Notes under the pieces: generated by a model
Seen by the model: only the letters and a program-made list of their open reading frames with translations
Database searches by the model: none
Told to the model about the DNA's origin: nothing
Position numbers and translations under genes: made by a program
Part shown: piece after piece, positions 1,920 to 46,202 of the stretch
Layout: every line of letters begins with the position of its first letter
Position numbering within the stretch: position 1 is the first letter of the stretch
Assembly (NCBI GenBank): GCA_037574385.1
Contig: GCA_037574385.1_4529.1
Reading direction: 5' to 3' (one strand)
Source of the DNA: a phage
DNA length: 64,000 nt

Positions 1920-3362
1920 ATGATCGAATTAAAAAGTCTACCATACGTTGATGGCCCTCCTGATGAGGGTCAAAAACGTTTAAACTGGATTAAAAATTCA
2001 GAAGAAATAACTGGCGCTGATACGTTATACGGTTCTGAAGGAGTAATGAACCGTCCAATAACAGAAGTTCAACGAAATGTAGAAACAATTAACGATAACG
2101 TTAAGACTATCGCAGAATCTTTAGATACCGCTAATGCTGATATTGTCACAATTAAAAGTATCTTAGATGTTTCTGGTGATGTAGATGCTTTAGCACAAAT
2201 TGGACATAACACTGATGATATTGAAGTATTAAAACACACTGTAAATTCACACAGTGTTGATATTTTAAACACTGAAGAAAAACTAGATGATACTATTGCT
2301 AATATCGGAGTAGTTAATCCAGAAACAGATTCAGTGTATCGTACGGTGCGTAACGACCTTCTTTGGATTAAAACCGAATTAGGGCAATATACTGGGCAAG
2401 ATATTAATGGTGTCCCAACCGAAGGTAATGAAAGCACCGGCATGAAACGACGTATTATTACTAACAGCTCAGTGTTGGTTGACCAAGGCGTTCGTTTAAC
2501 TGAGTTAGAAAATAAATTTGCCGATTCTGATGTTGGGGCTCTGACAACCGAAGTTGAAAACCTCCGTCAAGAAATAGGTCCTAGACCATCGTTAACAGTA
2601 CCGGTTTACACTCGTTTATCCGGTATTGATTCATCCATTTCTATCCAAACTAGAGATATTGCGGCATTAAAAGATTTTGTTGGATATCCTAATTCAACCG
2701 CTATTAAAACTCAAGTCGAGGCCAATCGTCTTTCTATATCAACAATAAATTCAGACATTAACTCGCCTGGCGGTATTAAACCACGTTTGACAACGTTAGA
2801 AACTACTATAGGCTCCCCAGATTTACCAACTACTCTTCAGGGTAGGATCAAATTAAATACCGATTCCATTTCAGGTATTAACACAGTTTTAGGTGTTGAT
2901 TCTTCTAGTGGTTTACGTTTTAATGTAGCATGGCTTAATCAGGTGGTTGGCGTTGATTCAAATGGTGGACAACCCGAACCGGCTGGTTCACTTTTATATA
3001 GGACTCGTATTCTTGAAACTGGTGTTACTGACCTAGACAATAACATTCAAAACGTTCAAACCGAATTGGGAACTAATTCGTCAGGTATTAAAGGACAAGT
3101 AACTAGTTTAAATAAACTTATAAGCGGCACTAACCCAAATGGTCAAACCATAGAAGAACGTGGTATATTGCCAACAGTTAAAAACCATGACACAACAATT
3201 ATGGCTTTAACTACGCGTGTTACCACTTTAGAAACCGACCTTGCTGCAGCAGAAGCAGAAATTCAGGCCCTTAAAGAGGCTGGATATATTGAAGATGCTC
3301 CTTCAGACGGTAAATTCTATGTTCGCAAAGATGGTGCATGGGTTGAACTTCCTACAGCTTAA
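1920..3362 (+). CDS. wac: fibritin (whisker / neck fibre)
   Basis: 480 aa; C-terminal foldon GYIEDAPSDGKFYVRKDGAWVELPT; position after gene 12. Confidence 0.95.
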   Translation: MIELKSLPYVDGPPDEGQKRLNWIKNSEEITGADTLYGSEGVMNRPITEVQRNVETINDNVKTIAESLDTANADIVTIKSILDVSGDVDALAQIGHNTDDIEVLKHTVNSHSVDILNTEEKLDDTIANIGVVNPETDSVYRTVRNDLLWIKTELGQYTGQDINGVPTEGNESTGMKRRIITNSSVLVDQGVRLTELENKFADSDVGALTTEVENLRQEIGPRPSLTVPVYTRLSGIDSSISIQTRDIAALKDFVGYPNSTAIKTQVEANRLSISTINSDINSPGGIKPRLTTLETTIGSPDLPTTLQGRIKLNTDSISGINTVLGVDSSSGLRFNVAWLNQVVGVDSNGGQPEPAGSLLYRTRILETGVTDLDNNIQNVQTELGTNSSGIKGQVTSLNKLISGTNPNGQTIEERGILPTVKNHDTTIMALTTRVTTLETDLAAAEAEIQALKEAGYIEDAPSDGKFYVRKDGAWVELPTA

Positions 3363-3368
3363 TGAAAA

Positions 3369-3382
3369 GGGCCTTCGGGCCC
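3369..3382 (+). terminator. stem-loop GGGCC-UUCG-GGCCC downstream of wac
   Basis: GC stem with UUCG tetraloop directly after wac stop; also overlaps the gene 13 RBS region. Confidence 0.5.
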
Positions 3383-3394
3383 TAAAGGATTTAT

Positions 3395-4321
3395 ATGTCA
3401 GGTTATAATGCACAAAACCCTAAAGAATTAAAGGATGTAATATTACGTCGTTTAGGCGCTCCTATTGTAAATGTCGAATTAACTACAGACCAAATTTATG
3501 ATTGTATTTCACGAGCGTTAGAACTTTATGGCGAATACCATTTTGACGGGTTGAATAAAGGTTTCCATGTATTTTTTGTTGATGACGAAGAAAAATACCG
3601 TCACGGCGTATTTGATATGCGTGGTTCTAATGTATTTGCTGTAACAAGAATTATAAGAACAAACGTTGGCTCTATTACTTCAATGGATGGTAACGCAACT
3701 TATCCATGGTTCACTGATTTCCTTTTAGGAATGGCAGGCGTTTCTGGTGGTATGGGTAGTAATTGTGGTAAATTCTACGGTCCGAACGCTTTTGGTGCCG
3801 ACCTCGGGTATTATTCTCAATTAGTATCTTATATGGGTATGCTTCAAGATATGATTGCTCCTCTTCCAGATTTTTGGTTTAACTCTGCAAACGAGCAATT
3901 AAAAGTAATGGGTAACTTTAGACAGAAAGATGTTATTATCGTTGAATCGTATGTTCGCTCTTATATTGAGACACATAAGATGGTAGGAAATACAGTAGGT
4001 TATGGTCAGGTCGGTCCTCGTGATTCATGGTCTATTTCTGAACGTTATGATAATCCAGACCATAATTTAGTCGGACGTCGAGTTGGTGAAGATCCTGCAA
4101 CTAAACAAGGCGCATATAACAACCGCTGGGTTAAAGATTATGCAACTGCATTAGCTAAAGAGCTTAATGGACAAATTCTTGCTAAACATCAAGGTATGAT
4201 GTTACCTGGTGGTGTCACTGTTGATGGTGTTCGATTAATTGAAGAAGCCCGTTTAGAGAAAGAAGCTTTACGAGAAGAGTTATATTTACTGGACCCTCCT
4301 GCAGGTATTTTGGTAGGTTAA
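3395..4321 (+). CDS. 13: neck protein gp13
   Basis: 308 aa, collinear with T4 gp13 ([23 protein letters not shown]...). Confidence 0.93.
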
Positions 4322-39932: not shown

Positions 39933-40056
39933 TTTAAATTCTCAATTCGAGATAATATTTAGTAGCCACGTTCGTCTGAATTTCACCTTCTTTCGACAGG
40001 TCTCTCAGTTGTAGGCTACCGCTTAGAAGAGTGTTCTCTTCATATAGTTATTTATA

Positions 40057-40389
40057 TCACTTATAAAGACACGGAATAGCTTTATAGTGGCATGTTACGA
40101 ATTTCTGTTTAATTTCTTTAGGTTGTTTAAGACCTAAAGCCACAAATGGATGTGGAACATTTCGAATTTGTCCAACTGGTAGTGGAGTCAAATCACCGAC
40201 TTCAACAAAACCTTCAGGAACATCAGGACCTACAGAATGAACTACACATAGTTCAGGAACTTCACCTTGAACACGTTTACCAATCACAAGTCCTGATTCG
40301 GTAACTTCTTCATCACCTGCTTGAGCGGGTTCAGAAACCAGAATGACATATTCACCAACAGCACGAATTGGGAGTTGTACTTCAGACAT
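40057..40389 (-). CDS. 31: co-chaperonin for GroEL gp31
   Basis: 110 aa; [29 protein letters not shown]... and C-terminal [15 protein letters not shown] as T4 gp31. Confidence 0.97.
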
Positions 40390-40419
40390 CTTATTTCCTT
40401 GTTGTTTGACGATAGATTA

Positions 40420-40444
40420 ATAATACCATACTATTTGTAAAGCA
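40420..40444 (-). promoter_or_regulatory. middle-type promoter (MotA box TGCTTTA, -10 TATTAT) for gene 31
   Basis: Minus strand aTGCTTTAcaaatagtatggTATTAT about 35 nt upstream of gp31 ATG. Confidence 0.5.
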
Positions 40445-40446
40445 TA

Positions 40447-40755
40447 TTACATAAGAAGCAAACGTTCCACCGGAGTACCATCAACCGAAATTACTTTATC
40501 AAGGCGGAAAGAACGCCACTGACCTAACTTGGTATCGAATGCTCGAACTGATTCACGAGGTTCATAACGAACTTCTGTTGCCGGATTGTTATTTTCGTAT
40601 TTGACTTCAAGTTCGTCGCGCGAAGCAAACATCGTACGAACATCACCGTTAGCCTTTTCAAATACAACACAATGAACGCCTACAGACAGAATAGTTTTAA
40701 TACGTTCACGAAGAACCATAGTTTCTTGTTCAGTTAAAATCATATTATTCACCAC
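40447..40755 (-). CDS. hypothetical protein (102 aa)
   Basis: ORF between gene 31 and cd. Confidence 0.6.
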   Translation of the reverse strand: MVNNMILTEQETMVLRERIKTILSVGVHCVVFEKANGDVRTMFASRDELEVKYENNNPATEVRYEPRESVRAFDTKLGQWRSFRLDKVISVDGTPVERLLLM

Positions 40756-41326
40756 AAAAGTTTCGGATTTGTTCCCAATTCAGAGAACGAAGATTATTAC
40801 GAGAGTACTGAATTACTTCAATACCAGCTTGTTTTAGAATATCTGCCCAATTTTCAGGAGATCTGTCATATAATTCTGCGTATACAACCTTTTTAATACC
40901 TGACTGCGTAATAGCTTTAGTGCAATCAGGACACGGAGAAAGCGTCGTATATAACGTAGCACCTTCAATAGAATTACCTTTACGAGCGGCAAACAAAATT
41001 GCATTCAATTCTGCGTGGATTTCATTATTAGCAGACCATGCACTATGAGCAGCTCGATGTTCTTTAGCTAAAACAAAATTATCTACCCGTCCAAATGCTG
41101 TAGTGCCTTCTTTATGACCAGCAATGATGACAGGACTCGGCTTGTTCTTCAACCAACCTTGTTCAGTAGCATGGTCACAACAGTTTATACCACCTGCCGG
41201 GCTACCGTTATACCCAGTAGAAATGATACGTCCATCTTTTTCAATGACGGCACCTACTTTCCATGAACAACATTTTGATTCTTGAGAAATCAGATATGCA
41301 ATCTGAAGGTATGTGCTAGCTTTCAT
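40745..41326 (-). CDS. cd: dCMP deaminase
   Basis: 193 aa; zinc-binding HAELNA and PCPDC motifs; length as T4 Cd. Confidence 0.95.
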   Translation of the reverse strand: MKASTYLQIAYLISQESKCCSWKVGAVIEKDGRIISTGYNGSPAGGINCCDHATEQGWLKNKPSPVIIAGHKEGTTAFGRVDNFVLAKEHRAAHSAWSANNEIHAELNAILFAARKGNSIEGATLYTTLSPCPDCTKAITQSGIKKVVYAELYDRSPENWADILKQAGIEVIQYSRNNLRSLNWEQIRNFCGE

Positions 41327-42318
41327 TATTGAACCTTATTAATATAAGTTAACAGCTCTTTAGTTTGTTCCCAACTGATGCACGCATCGGTAACGGAAAC
41401 GCCATAGGACATATTATCAGAAATTTTTTGATTTCCTTCATGTAGGAACGATTCTATCATAATTCCTTTGACCAAATCATTAGCTGCTAAATTTTTACCA
41501 ATACCAATTTGATTGCTATAATGCCCATCAGCGTTTGCATGGCTACAGTCAACCATCACATAATGATTCAGACCTACTGCCCTTGCTTTGTTAGAAGCTT
41601 CTTGAATATCAGAAGAATGATAGTTCGGGCCGTTGGTCCCGCCACGCAATACGATATGCGTATTCTGATTACCTTCAGCTTCAACAATGCCTACAGTACC
41701 ATCGACGTCCATACCCATATACCGATGAGGCCAGGCGGCACTATACATCGCGTCTGTAGCTACTTTAATAGAACCATTGGTTGCGTTCTTAAAGCCTACG
41801 CACATCGGTAGACCTGAAGCAATTTCACGATGTGTCTGACTTTCAGTCGTACGGGCGCCAATAGCAACCCATGAGAAAATACCAGAAAGATACTTAATCG
41901 TGAATGGGTCTAATACTTCAGTTGCTAATGGAAGTCCCATACGTAGAAGTTTACGACACAATGTTCGTGCAACTATAAGACCGTGGTTCATATCAAAACT
42001 TCCGTCAAGATATGGATCATTTACAAGACCTTTCCAACCTACGGTAGTTCGAGGCTTTTCAAAATAAACGCGCATCACTAACAGAACATTAGGAAGACGA
42101 GTTTGAAGTTCAGCCAGACGTTTGCCGTATTCAACAGCAGCAATAGGGTCATGAATTGAACAAGGACCTACAACAATAAGTTTGCGTGGGTCTTCACCGT
42201 TCATAATCGAATTAACTTGTTCGCGATGAGAAGCCACTTGTGATGCGTAAGCTTCCGACAAAGGAATAATCTCAGCCAGTTCTTTTGGAGAAATAAGTTT
42301 TCCGACGACAGGTAACAT
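41326..42318 (-). CDS. 3-deoxy-D-arabino-heptulosonate 7-phosphate (DAHP) synthase, class I AroG/F/H-like
   Basis: 330 aa; LIVVGPCSIHD, KPRTTVGWKGL, IGARTTESQ, CVGFKN, IVLRGG motifs align with E. coli AroG over full length; stop overlaps cd start. Confidence 0.9.
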   Translation of the reverse strand: MLPVVGKLISPKELAEIIPLSEAYASQVASHREQVNSIMNGEDPRKLIVVGPCSIHDPIAAVEYGKRLAELQTRLPNVLLVMRVYFEKPRTTVGWKGLVNDPYLDGSFDMNHGLIVARTLCRKLLRMGLPLATEVLDPFTIKYLSGIFSWVAIGARTTESQTHREIASGLPMCVGFKNATNGSIKVATDAMYSAAWPHRYMGMDVDGTVGIVEAEGNQNTHIVLRGGTNGPNYHSSDIQEASNKARAVGLNHYVMVDCSHANADGHYSNQIGIGKNLAANDLVKGIMIESFLHEGNQKISDNMSYGVSVTDACISWEQTKELLTYINKVQ

Positions 42319-42438
42319 AACAATCCTTAGGAGATATAAACAGATTCTGATTCAACAATACCTTTAACCGGATTAGACAGGTTAAGTTGGTAGTGCTCAG
42401 ATTTATGACCATTCTCGATAGTAATGAGATAGCTCTCA

Positions 42439-42675
42439 TTATAGTGTTCCATATACTCGAGTTGCTTCAACAAGACCATCACTGCCTAATTTAAGATTAG
42501 TAATTTGGTCACCATCTTTAGGATTAACGATTATGAGAAAAGAACGTGGAGATTCTTGAATAACTCGTAATGTTGCATCCTGGAAACGTTCAGACACTTT
42601 ATTGATGAGTGCTTGAGCAAATTCTTTTACTTTAATCTGAAATTCGTGTACTGTAATTGGATTTTCACTTAGCAT
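42439..42675 (-). CDS. hypothetical protein (78 aa)
   Basis: ORF in co-directional array. Confidence 0.55.
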   Translation of the reverse strand: MLSENPITVHEFQIKVKEFAQALINKVSERFQDATLRVIQESPRSFLIIVNPKDGDQITNLKLGSDGLVEATRVYGTL

Positions 42676-42732
42676 TTCAATTTCCTCATTGTTGGTAGAG
42701 TCATCATATCACAACTCTACGGTGTTGTAAAC

Positions 42733-43008
42733 TTAAATTGCAAAACATTTAATTTCTTGTGAATCGAAATCAACTTCACACTGAATTACTAGTTCAGCAT
42801 CAAGACCAAACACAACAATCACATGAGCCGAGCTGGGCAACAATGTAACAGACACAGAATCCACTTGGTCAGGCACTAGTGTATTCAAAACGTAGAGTAG
42901 TTCAGAGTGGACCTTAAGCTCGGTAGCAGTATCCAGCTTATCAAAGAAATGATTTGCGATAATCTGACTAAAAACGACCTTTACAATTTCAGAATATTTA
43001 GGGAACAT
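42733..43008 (-). CDS. hypothetical protein (91 aa)
   Basis: ORF with early-type promoter upstream. Confidence 0.55.
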   Translation of the reverse strand: MFPKYSEIVKVVFSQIIANHFFDKLDTATELKVHSELLYVLNTLVPDQVDSVSVTLLPSSAHVIVVFGLDAELVIQCEVDFDSQEIKCFAI

Positions 43009-43015
43009 AATTACC

Positions 43016-43240
43016 TCAGTGTACAGTATTTACTTTAACTCGAACAACAAATTGCTCGGTCGGTTCGCCTACAGGAACAAACTCTATATGATATTCGCCT
43101 TTGTAACGAGTATTCAGGTCGTTACGAATTTCGGTAAGCTTGTTGATTAATGTAGAACTCATATTAAGTCCTACTAGTTTACGAAGCATTTTGTATGCTT
43201 CATCTTCGATTTCATGATGTTTATCGTACATAATTTTCAT
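43016..43240 (-). CDS. hypothetical protein (74 aa)
   Basis: ORF in co-directional array. Confidence 0.55.
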   Translation of the reverse strand: MKIMYDKHHEIEDEAYKMLRKLVGLNMSSTLINKLTEIRNDLNTRYKGEYHIEFVPVGEPTEQFVVRVKVNTVH

Positions 43241-43411
43241 TTAACCATTCAATTGTCTGGTCGACGTTATCAAATATACCACCGTCCAAACGTTCTTCAT
43301 GCTCATAGTCCAGCACATCAATACCGAACTGTCCATTTACTAAAGGCCAGGCTACAAACAAATATTCTTTATGCTGTTCGATGGCCTCAATCACTTCATA
43401 TAATCGTTTCA

Positions 43412-43412
<1 letters not shown>
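43221..43412 (-). CDS. hypothetical acidic protein (63 aa)
   Basis: ORF whose stop overlaps pseT start. Confidence 0.5.
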
Positions 43413-44498
<1,086 letters not shown>

Positions 44499-44499
<1 letters not shown>

Positions 44500-44798
44500 T
44501 ATTTTATTCCTAAGAAAGCTTCAAGAATACGAATGTTATGTTCGCGCCGGTCTTTATTAATTTCAGCAACGTTTTTATTAATTGACGTACTTCTAACGTT
44601 TGAAGAAATAAATTTAATCATATGACTTTTGAGTTGTTGCAAATCCAACCCTTTTTCTTTAGCAGCTTTACGAAGAGCTTTACCTGCTTCGTCTAGGGCC
44701 TTTGCTGCATCTTTATCATAATTGACAAGTGACATTCCACGGCAGATATCAATATACTCATCTGACCGTTTGATATAATTCTCTAGTAATGTTTTCAT
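44499..44798 (-). CDS. hypothetical protein (99 aa)
   Basis: ORF with early-type promoter upstream. Confidence 0.6.
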
Positions 44799-44826
44799 TT
44801 AGATTTCCTCAATTATCCATAGGAGC

Positions 44827-44856
44827 ATTATACTCTGCTCCCGAGAGTTTGTAAAC
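44827..44856 (-). promoter_or_regulatory. early-type promoter GTTTAC-N18-TATAAT
   Basis: Minus strand GTTTACaaactctcgggagcagagTATAAT. Confidence 0.55.
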
Positions 44857-45080
44857 TATTTTACTAAAGATTCAATATACTCATGAAGAGCTTTAGTCGC
44901 TACTGCCCACTTGTTCTGATATTCATTTTTCAGATTAGCACGAGACTGAACTAACAAGCGGTCGTTAGTCGGAGGCAAAGATTCTAATCGTTGAATCTGA
45001 CGGCCATAAATCATAGCCGCCATTTCAGAGTCATAGATAAGTCCTTTAAGGTATTCATGCTGTTCTTTAGTCATTGACAT
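44856..45080 (-). CDS. hypothetical protein (74 aa)
   Basis: ORF downstream of the spanin pair. Confidence 0.55.
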   Translation of the reverse strand: MSMTKEQHEYLKGLIYDSEMAAMIYGRQIQRLESLPPTNDRLLVQSRANLKNEYQNKWAVATKALHEYIESLVK

Positions 45081-45361
45081 TTTTCCTCTTTTAAACCACT
45101 ACGATAATAACATAACATAGTCTTCTGGTCATGTACATATCTTTTTACGTCGTTTAACCAGATACGAAATTCTTGAGAGTCTTCAAATGGCATTCCAACC
45201 CATGGATTACCATCAATAACCTTTACCTGCCATTTCTGGTTATATTCAACAATAGATTCAGGCCATTGCGGATGTAAAGTTTCTTTAGGGCTTAAGGGCA
45301 CATCTTGGGCACATCCAGCCAAAATGCCAATAGATAATACAACTGCGGTTAATTTAATCAT
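45071..45361 (-). CDS. outer-membrane spanin lipoprotein (T4 pseT.2-like)
   Basis: 96 aa; signal peptide with lipobox LAGC; follows the i-spanin gene. Confidence 0.8.
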   Translation of the reverse strand: MIKLTAVVLSIGILAGCAQDVPLSPKETLHPQWPESIVEYNQKWQVKVIDGNPWVGMPFEDSQEFRIWLNDVKRYVHDQKTMLCYYRSGLKEEKCQ

Positions 45362-45714
45362 TCTGAGAGCTTCCTGAGGTCTTCTGCAAAGGAATCGAAG
45401 GACCTGTTGATTTGTTTTTCAACCAATCCTGGTTTACTTGCCACCACGTTCTTCTTCTTCGAATCCTTACGGAGCTTTTCATTTTCAGCCTTAAGTTGGT
45501 CAACTAAAACACGGTTCTTATAAGTCATTTCTTCGATTGACTGATATTGAACTTTGAAGTCGTCTAATACTTTAGCATTGTTTTTAGCAGTCTCTTTAAC
45601 AGAAGCCAATTCAGTATTCAACGAATCAACTTTGTTGTTTAAGACAACTATTGTTACAGTAGAAACTAGAGCAAAAGCTGCTACTATAGCATAAATCGGA
45701 TTTACTTTAAGCAT
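45358..45714 (-). CDS. inner-membrane spanin (T4 pseT.3-like)
   Basis: 118 aa; N-terminal transmembrane helix then coiled-coil. Confidence 0.8.
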   Translation of the reverse strand: MLKVNPIYAIVAAFALVSTVTIVVLNNKVDSLNTELASVKETAKNNAKVLDDFKVQYQSIEEMTYKNRVLVDQLKAENEKLRKDSKKKNVVASKPGLVEKQINRSFDSFAEDLRKLSE

Positions 45715-46202
45715 GTTTTAATAATCTCAATGATTTCATCTCGGGATAATCCATTGATAAGAACGGTTTTCAAACCATCACACTGGATTTTGTACGATTC
45801 AAACAATACACACAACTCTTCTGCTGTATGATACGGGCTTGAAATTCCGAGGCGGTTGAATTTGTCGGTAAGAGGGTCGCAAATAATGTAGAATTTTATA
45901 CCTGCGATATGTACGTTTGGTTGACTAATATTAATGAACACATTAGCGTCATATTTAGTCAAATTGTTTTGAAGAAATTCTACCATGGCATTAACTGCTT
46001 CCGGCATCGCTTCGCGTTTCTCTTCGGCGTATCGAGTGGAATACTCTTTTTGTTTTACTTTCTTTTTAAGATTTTTGGCCAGTGTAACACGGAGGTCAGT
46101 AAGATAACCAACTGGACGTCCTTTCTTAAAGACTCGGATTCCGTCAGTTGTGTCTCCAAAAGCGGTTACGACCATATCGTTAGTAATCAATTGCATATTC
46201 AT
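45702..46202 (-). CDS. alc: Alc-like protein (host transcription inhibitor) by position
   Basis: 166 aa from internal ATG with GAGGA RBS; located between spanins and rnlA as T4 alc; sequence match not independently verified. Confidence 0.6.
   Translation of the reverse strand: MNMQLITNDMVVTAFGDTTDGIRVFKKGRPVGYLTDLRVTLAKNLKKKVKQKEYSTRYAEEKREAMPEAVNAMVEFLQNNLTKYDANVFINISQPNVHIAGIKFYIICDPLTDKFNRLGISSPYHTAEELCVLFESYKIQCDGLKTVLINGLSRDEIIEIIKTCLK

Follow-up and report, generated by a model that had tools for sequence, protein, structure and literature searches.

Four small genes between pseT and a DAHP synthase gene of a Mosigvirus-type phage belong to conserved T-even families

What are the four small open reading frames (ORFs) that lie in one direction between pseT and a 3-deoxy-D-arabino-heptulosonate 7-phosphate (DAHP) synthase gene of a phage genome, are they real genes, and what might their products do? 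The stretch that raises this question, called the window here, is 64,000 nucleotides (nt) of contig GCA_037574385.1_4529.1 (NCBI GenBank assembly GCA_037574385.1), and the four frames occupy its positions 42,439 to 43,412. A first-pass annotation made from the sequence alone had reported ORFs of 78, 91, 74 and 63 amino acids (aa) between the two genes, and the ORF list for positions 40000-46000 contains exactly these, all on the minus strand; in this order they are labeled by position as A, B, C and D (Table 1). Over 3.1 kb, the sequence shares 99.5% identity with Shigella phage ESh27 and 97-98.7% with many Mosigvirus genomes, and judged by this nucleotide identity the source is a Mosigvirus-type T-even phage. 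All four ORFs belong to T-even families that have already been catalogued as “conserved hypothetical”, and no new type of element is present. The first-pass observation is therefore correct but ordinary, while the anti-defence role attached to it is speculative.

Family assignment and distribution

Against a gathering score of 27 bits, ORF A matches Pfam family PF24005 with 121.5 bits (residues 1-77 on positions 1-77 of a 78-position profile) and ORF B matches PF24051 with 116.5 bits (residues 1-91 on positions 1-93 of 93); PF24005 is the sole domain in all relatives of ORF A. ORF C aligns to PHROG 3609 (residues 4-74 on profile positions 1-71) and is without a Pfam family in the copy searched. 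Membership of ORF D in the Cd.4 family was assigned by phrog_2360 and by the PF26883 tag precomputed for its relatives at 71-97% identity, not by a direct PF26883 score, since this model is newer than the Pfam copy used for the window. Amino-acid identity to the T4 proteins is 70.5% for A and Cd.2, about 65% for B and Cd.3, and 52% (over 63 aa) for D and Cd.4. Over the two DUF families and the four PHROG families, E values lie between 1e-33 and 1e-39. The four ORFs are not paralogues of one another, because the hhalign probability was below 2% for each pair.

Gene order agrees with these assignments. The reference T4 order is pseT, cd.5, cd.4, cd.3, cd.2, cd.1, cd, and in the window pseT, cd.4, cd.3, cd.2 and cd follow one another on a single strand, cd.3 being separated from cd.2 by an early promoter; the order of the cd.2, cd.3, cd.4 and RB69 ORF227c-like orthologues matches the annotations in T4, JS98, VR7 and ATK47, ORF C being missing from T4. 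The likeness to T4 cd.2, cd.3 and cd.4 (UniProt P39498, P39499 and P39500) thus covers families, order, strand, position between pseT and cd, and promoter, and on sequence grounds A, B and D are true orthologues of these genes. Differences from T4 are that the window lacks cd.5 and cd.1, with DAHP synthase in the place of cd.1, that it carries ORF C as an additional gene between cd.4 and cd.3, and that its cd.3 is a distinct lineage, sharing only 65-69% identity with every other allele class among the phages searched. The proposal that the array fills the position of the T4 cd.x genes is therefore borne out, three of the four ORFs being orthologous to T4 cd.2, cd.3 and cd.4 and the 74-aa ORF being without a T4 counterpart.

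No T4 counterpart of ORF C was found by tblastn or by phmmer against T4 ORFs at E up to 10, and the latter search also rules out that ORF C is a displaced T4 cd.5. The ORF is a full-length member of the RB69 ORF227c / JS98 orf214 / VR7 ORF234c family and has the same position between cd.4 and cd.3 in JS98, VR7 and ATK47, where it is annotated as RB69 ORF227c-like. Within this family, which has neither a T4 member nor a Pfam entry in the copy searched, Mosigvirus copies are distinguished by three extra N-terminal codons (MKI/MKT) and by N instead of H at the fourth-from-last residue.

Presence and absence in related phages were surveyed with profile hidden Markov models run over 16 loci, and the pattern is patchy across genera. 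Cd.2 has the widest distribution of the four, being present in 11 of the 11 Tevenvirinae-type genera examined with a weak match in Krischvirus JSE, and Cd.3 was found in ten genera, the ORF227c family in eight (Mosig-, Dhaka-, Gapriver-, Gelderland-, Karam-, Marfa- and Kanagawavirus, and Serratia phage 4S), and Cd.4 in six. Among the 16 loci scanned, those of Tequatro-, Winkler-, Jiaoda- and Krischvirus lacked the ORF227c family. Acinetobacter phage Ac42 and Aeromonas phage Ah1 keep pseT and cd, and the slot between them is filled by unrelated ORFs including a NUDIX hydrolase. By these gene contents, the slot is therefore plastic at long evolutionary distance, and Cd.2 and Cd.3 are near-core in T-even-like phages of Enterobacterales, so that the array is not a fast-turnover island.

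In wider searches the families were confined to T4-like phages and were never part of larger proteins. The Cd.2 search gave 80 clusters, all single-domain proteins of 64-115 aa, while a HMMER scan of 1.84 billion representatives gave only four convincing 50%-identity clusters for ORF C, all of about 70 aa. Two metagenomic proteins (P0007 and P0013), in which residues 1-56 of ORF C are fused to a fragment with a Pfam B5-domain tag, were rejected as probable chimeric assemblies. In another metagenomic sequence, P0029, natural recombination has joined the N-terminal half of a Dhakavirus-like Cd.4 to a Mosigvirus-like C-terminal half.

Selection, expression and transcription layout

To judge the reality of the genes, Nei-Gojobori statistics were calculated against orthologues taken from eight other genera. 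For all four frames the proportion of nonsynonymous differences (pN) was 0.17-0.49 against a saturated proportion of synonymous differences (pS) of 0.59-0.92, and substitutions were concentrated at codon position 3. Examples are ORF A against T4 (pN 0.21, pS 0.70), ORF B against ATK47 (pN 0.17, pS 0.65) and ORF D against T4 (pN 0.33, pS 0.92); for ORF C, the ratio of nonsynonymous to synonymous substitution rates (dN/dS) was about 0.08-0.12 (0.08-0.10 against Melville, F48 and EnC15). ORF C is the most conserved of the four, with 63-69% identity across six other genera, 18 invariant columns and an invariant C-terminal TVH. Phage records found by tblastn numbered 787, 912, 338 and 683 for A, B, C and D, respectively, and at least 97% of these cover at least 80% of the protein. 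By these substitution patterns, the four frames are under purifying selection across 6-11 genera.

In T4, cd.2 gives early RNA and early protein, while cd.3 and cd.4 give early RNA and middle-class protein (PMC9697503, supplementary tables S2 and S4). For ORF C, which T4 lacks, expression is inferred. Because the frames are conserved and the T4 orthologues are expressed, the genes are real. Of the two signs that the first-pass annotation had named as counting against the array, i.e., frames not conserved in relatives and lack of expression, neither was found: the frames are conserved and the products of cd.2-cd.4 are made in T4.

A T4-type early promoter with 10 of 12 consensus matches and the TG extension lies between ORFs B and A. 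The T4 RefSeq record has a misc_feature at the matching position, “early promoter Pe133295 between cd.2 and cd.3”, and the element aligns among the window, ATK47 and T4. ORF A is the first gene behind it and has a GAGGA ribosome-binding site. With this conserved promoter, and with the early RNA and early or middle protein of the T4 orthologues (PMC9697503), the description of the array as early is well founded.

The array had also been described as overlapping or tightly coupled, which is right for pseT, D, C and B and wrong for B and A, where the promoter intervenes. The stop codon of pseT and the start codon of ORF D have one base in common (TAATG), as read from the sequence, and ORFs D and C overlap by 20 nt, or by 11 nt if C begins at its fourth codon. 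This codon (43231) is the start used in all other genera, and by this comparison it may be the true start of ORF C. The gap between C and B is 7 nt, with a GAGG ribosome-binding site spanning the ORF C stop codon, while 57 nt including the promoter separate B from A and 120 nt separate A from the DAHP synthase gene. A hidden RNA element in the locus was also looked for, and neither an Rfam match at E up to 1 nor a coding-strand terminator was found.

Two conserved ORFs without assigned function precede pseT on the side occupied by pseT.1 in T4, one of 99 aa at 44499-44798 on the minus strand (PHROG 2364) and one of 63 aa at 44308-44499 on the minus strand (PHROG 8683 / RB69 ORF230c-like). Both lie behind a near-consensus promoter at 44827-44855, which, judged by its position, probably drives these two ORFs together with pseT, D, C and B. 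Transcription is likely organized in two early units, these six genes forming one and A, DAHP synthase, cd and onward the other. In this layout, D, C and B would be read together with pseT from the upstream early promoter and would be translationally coupled, and Cd.2 would head the second early unit behind the Pe133295 counterpart, running into DAHP synthase and cd.

Table 1. Coordinates, strand and supporting matches of the features in and around the array
Feature	Position	Strand	Evidence
ORF A, 78 aa, Cd.2 family (DUF7320)	42439..42675	-	PF24005 E 1.5e-35; PHROG 1504
ORF B, 91 aa, Cd.3 family (DUF7355)	42733..43008	-	PF24051 E 5.5e-34; phrog_1695
ORF C, 74 aa, RB69 ORF227c / JS98 orf214 family	43016..43240	-	phrog_3609 E 1.2e-39
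ORF D, 63 aa, Cd.4 family	43221..43412	-	phrog_2360 E 3.6e-33; 52% identity to T4 Cd.4
T4-type early promoter, B-A spacer	42703..42732	-	GTTTACA, 17 nt, TG-TATGAT; T4 Pe133295 counterpart
pseT (polynucleotide 5'-kinase/3'-phosphatase), upstream anchor	43412..44311	-	PF25109 E 8.5e-59 and AAA_33; PNKP phosphatase and P-loop kinase domains; phrog_505
Upstream early-type promoter	44827..44855	-	GTTTACA, 17 nt, TATAAT; 11/12 consensus matches
Relic of foreign cd.2 allele 3' end, not a gene	42319..42438	-	Cd.2 profile E 8e-8; without Shine-Dalgarno sequence
DAHP synthase (AroG-like), downstream neighbor, in place of T4 cd.1	41326..42318	-	PF00793 E 5.2e-75

Possible functions of the four proteins

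AlphaFold2 models of ORFs A and C are confident, and the folds predicted for both are non-catalytic. The model of ORF C (predicted local distance difference test score, pLDDT, 86.6) consists of two helices and a beta-hairpin and, in a BFVD fold search, matches only its own family. Candidate comparisons for ORF A are the KA1 / AMP-activated protein kinase (AMPK)-alpha C-terminal domain, the type VI secretion system (T6SS) immunity protein TplEi, and alpha+beta modules resembling half of the TATA-binding protein (TBP). ORF B is acidic, with an isoelectric point (pI) of 4.45, as is ORF D, with a pI of 4.3, a net charge of about -9 and conserved acidic residues E12, D32, D35 and E39. Neither single sequences nor profiles of 6-11 members found a PDB match below E 0.07 for any of the four, and NCBIfam and PADLOC gave zero matches, the PADLOC result being of little weight because its models represent defence, not anti-defence, proteins. 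The earlier remark that no motif is recognizable therefore still applies, with Pfam domains of unknown function (DUFs) as the only matches besides these empty searches.

Two fitness screens of T4 include the orthologues. By CRISPRi-ART, cd.1-cd.5 are listed with function “unknown” and class “Not Fit”, with scores of 0.17 for cd.2, -0.07 for cd.3 and 0.08 for cd.4 (PMC11879866, supplementary file 15), and by HIDEN-SEQ, cd.2, cd.3 and cd.4 are “Non-essential”, with insertions at 18/19, 20/20 and 17/17 TA sites, respectively (bioRxiv 10.1101/2025.11.20.689424). The latter study recovered counter-defence genes, known or new, for RexAB, RnlAB, CBASS, DarTG1 and DarTG2 and also a medium-dependent gene. 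These defence-screen data concern the T4 orthologues (cd.2, cd.3 and cd.4) and five systems. In a literature search by gene name, cd.2-cd.5 were treated only in supplementary tables, no toxicity data were found for any cd.x gene, and no T4-host interactome dataset was found. The four families are thus among many early T-even genes that have remained without a function despite proteomic detection and two genome-wide fitness screens.

We consider it probable, with moderate confidence, that the four ORFs encode mutually unrelated small T-even proteins that are made early, act as non-enzymatic stoichiometric binders, and provide a conditional advantage while being dispensable in the laboratory. 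Each protein would fold independently and would bind a host or phage macromolecule stoichiometrically, and its benefit would be conditional, through host takeover or through tuning of host range or counter-defence in natural hosts. Signs of an accessory role are the dispensability in T4, the patchy presence across genera, the different slot contents of Ac42 and Ah1, the exchange of cd.3 described below, and the intragenic recombinant of Cd.4. Several points weigh against this interpretation: no partner, phenotype or toxicity is on record for any of the four, and no cd.x gene is among the reported HIDEN-SEQ hits, either for the five defence systems or for minimal versus rich medium (10.1101/2025.11.20.689424). 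Moreover, the near-core status of Cd.2 and Cd.3 in Tevenvirinae-type phages and the unusual conservation of ORF C fit a conserved housekeeping partner better than a fast arms race.

A more specific proposal is that one or more of the four proteins are dedicated to anti-defence, for example as an inhibitor of restriction, of abortive infection or of a tRNA-targeting system, or as an acidic nucleic-acid mimic, which we regard as possible, though on the unlikely side. The exchange of cd.3 alleles and the acidity of B and D, as bulk pI, are in its favor. Expression is early, and the region is variable at long range but has Cd.2 and Cd.3 near-core within Tevenvirinae-type phages. Against the proposal, searches by homology and by fold gave no match to any solved anti-defence protein, selection is purifying, not diversifying, in all four, and conservation extends broadly across phages of different host genera. 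The first-pass annotation had suggested host shutoff or anti-defence and had taken the adjacent tRNA-repair gene as a clue, a reading that is plausible but not supported by the data: T4 cd.2-cd.4 are “Not Fit” in CRISPRi-ART, non-essential and not hits for the five HIDEN-SEQ defence systems, and the pseT neighborhood reflects a gene order conserved throughout T-even phages, not a functional link. Known proteins of this kind and other host-directed proteins (Dmd, Arn, Acb1/57B, AdfN/30.3, AdfM/tk.4 and Alc) are likewise small, early and not needed on permissive laboratory hosts; the four ORFs showed no similarity to them in sequence or fold, and these known proteins differ in having a conditional phenotype against a named host system, while the cd.x genes have had none so far.

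It is also doubtful, though worth stating, that at least one of the four counters a further host defence system or is a phage component sensed by one. The best candidates would be Cd.3, of which deeply divergent alleles are swapped as an exact single-gene cassette among otherwise near-identical Mosigviruses, and the unusually conserved ORF C, which is not in T4; the cd.3 exchange and the conservation of ORF C point to these two as first priorities. If the suggestion is true, the slot between pseT and cd would be a small counter-defence locus of T-even phages, and if one of the genes is a counter-defence or host-range factor, this would matter for host-range prediction in phage therapy with Mosigvirus and Tequatrovirus.

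The main alternative to a conditional binder, improbable in our judgement, is that the four are auxiliary subunits or regulators of the phage nucleotide or RNA-repair machinery (PseT, dCMP deaminase or the dNTP-synthesis complex). In this case the synteny of pseT and cd, kept across at least 11 genera, would be meaningful, as would the persistence of Cd.2 by pseT and cd in Krischvirus JSE despite loss of the other three; a conserved phage partner would also be in keeping with how strongly ORF C is conserved. Dispensability is no guide here, because pseT and cd are non-essential as well. On the other hand, early gene order is conserved in T-even phages regardless of function, Ac42 and Ah1 have pseT and cd without any of the four, several genera have pseT and cd without ORFs C and D, and no interaction is on record.

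It is very improbable that one ORF corresponds to the growth inhibitor “Emp” of Mosigvirus AV110, which is reported to target Mre-dependent peptidoglycan synthesis. Emp is described in a 2026 preprint as an early small inhibitory protein of this close relative, which carries these ORFs (10.64898/2026.09.14.751387), but full-text term counts of the preprint gave no pseT, polynucleotide kinase, dCMP deaminase, cd.4, DAHP, or “63/74/78/91 amino acid”, the word “peptide” used there suggests a smaller product, and, as a genome has about 100 small early ORFs, the prior amounts to no more than a few per cent. Hardly credible, finally, is the view that some or all of the ORFs are chance frames or decaying remnants, for which one may cite the dispensable T4 orthologues, a laboratory T4 clone with a truncated 69-aa cd.3 and the relic nature of an adjoining 41-aa “ORF”: it is effectively refuted already by the selection statistics in each frame and T4 expression, and the intact copies in at least 97% of hundreds of genomes and the confident AlphaFold models also stand against it.

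Recombination and minor observations at the locus

In comparison with ATK47, nucleotide identity is 97-100% over 4 kb and falls to 60-75% in a sharp-edged patch at about 42985-42700, which covers ORF B and the promoter spacer. The cd.3 allele of the window matches only 41 phage records with at least 95% identity, and the closest other allele shares 69%. By this identity profile, cd.3 was swapped as a single-gene cassette in comparison with other Mosigviruses. A second short patch, with 78-82% identity to ATK47 over about 120 nt, lies at 41121-41240 on the minus strand inside cd (dCMP deaminase), and its low identity suggests another small recombination tract. A MobE-like homing endonuclease gene has inserted between pseT and cd.4 of Gaprivervirus VR7, on the opposite strand (positions 1706-2431 of the locus extract), and this may be one source of local recombination in the slot.

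The 120-nt gap behind ORF A has a history of its own. Its translation matches the C-terminal part (about 35 aa) of Cd.2 of F48 and PEi20 with 54.5% and 50% identity, respectively (E about 1e-5), and in these two phages cd.2 lies immediately next to DAHP synthase. Some annotators call a 41-aa ORF at 42327..42452; a fifth gene in the gap was considered and rejected, since the sequence is a relic of the cd.2 3' end without a ribosome-binding site, and this ORF can be dropped from annotations as a recombination relic. The four ORFs themselves can be named by orthology as cd.4, RB69 ORF227c-like, cd.3 and cd.2.

A phylogenetic breakpoint is located at the ORF A stop codon. Upstream of it, the nearest relatives of pseT and ORF A are those of JS98, T4 and VR7, while downstream of it DAHP synthase and cd are closest to PEi20 and F48 (for cd, 78-79% against 73.6% to T4). 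Because affinity switches at this point, the DAHP synthase block was apparently acquired by recombination, probably with a crossover inside cd.2 that replaced cd.1 and left the scar. The product is an AroG-type DAHP synthase, the first enzyme of the shikimate pathway, and the gene is an auxiliary metabolic gene with patchy occurrence among T4-like phages; it is at the matching position in Marfavirus F48, Kanagawavirus PEi20 and Winklervirus CBH8, with 67-77% amino-acid identity.

Two observations concern T4 records. In the laboratory “mutant T4 clone” T4_3t3 (OL964735), cd.3 diverges after residue 47 and ends at 69 aa, in comparison with 91 aa in the reference (clone locus extract 3195-3404 against T4 RefSeq extract 2335-2610); this is an apparent frameshift tolerated in the laboratory, and it fits dispensability. 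The reference annotation of T4 cd.2 (76 aa, MKNRLLLKEFQ...) has an N-terminus unlike that of the T4 clone and all relatives (M/LLSEKPITVKEFQ...), as found by comparing positions 2032-2262 of the T4 RefSeq locus extract with positions 3433-3672 of the clone extract, and the discrepancy may well go back to an old sequencing indel or to a wrongly set start in NC_000866.

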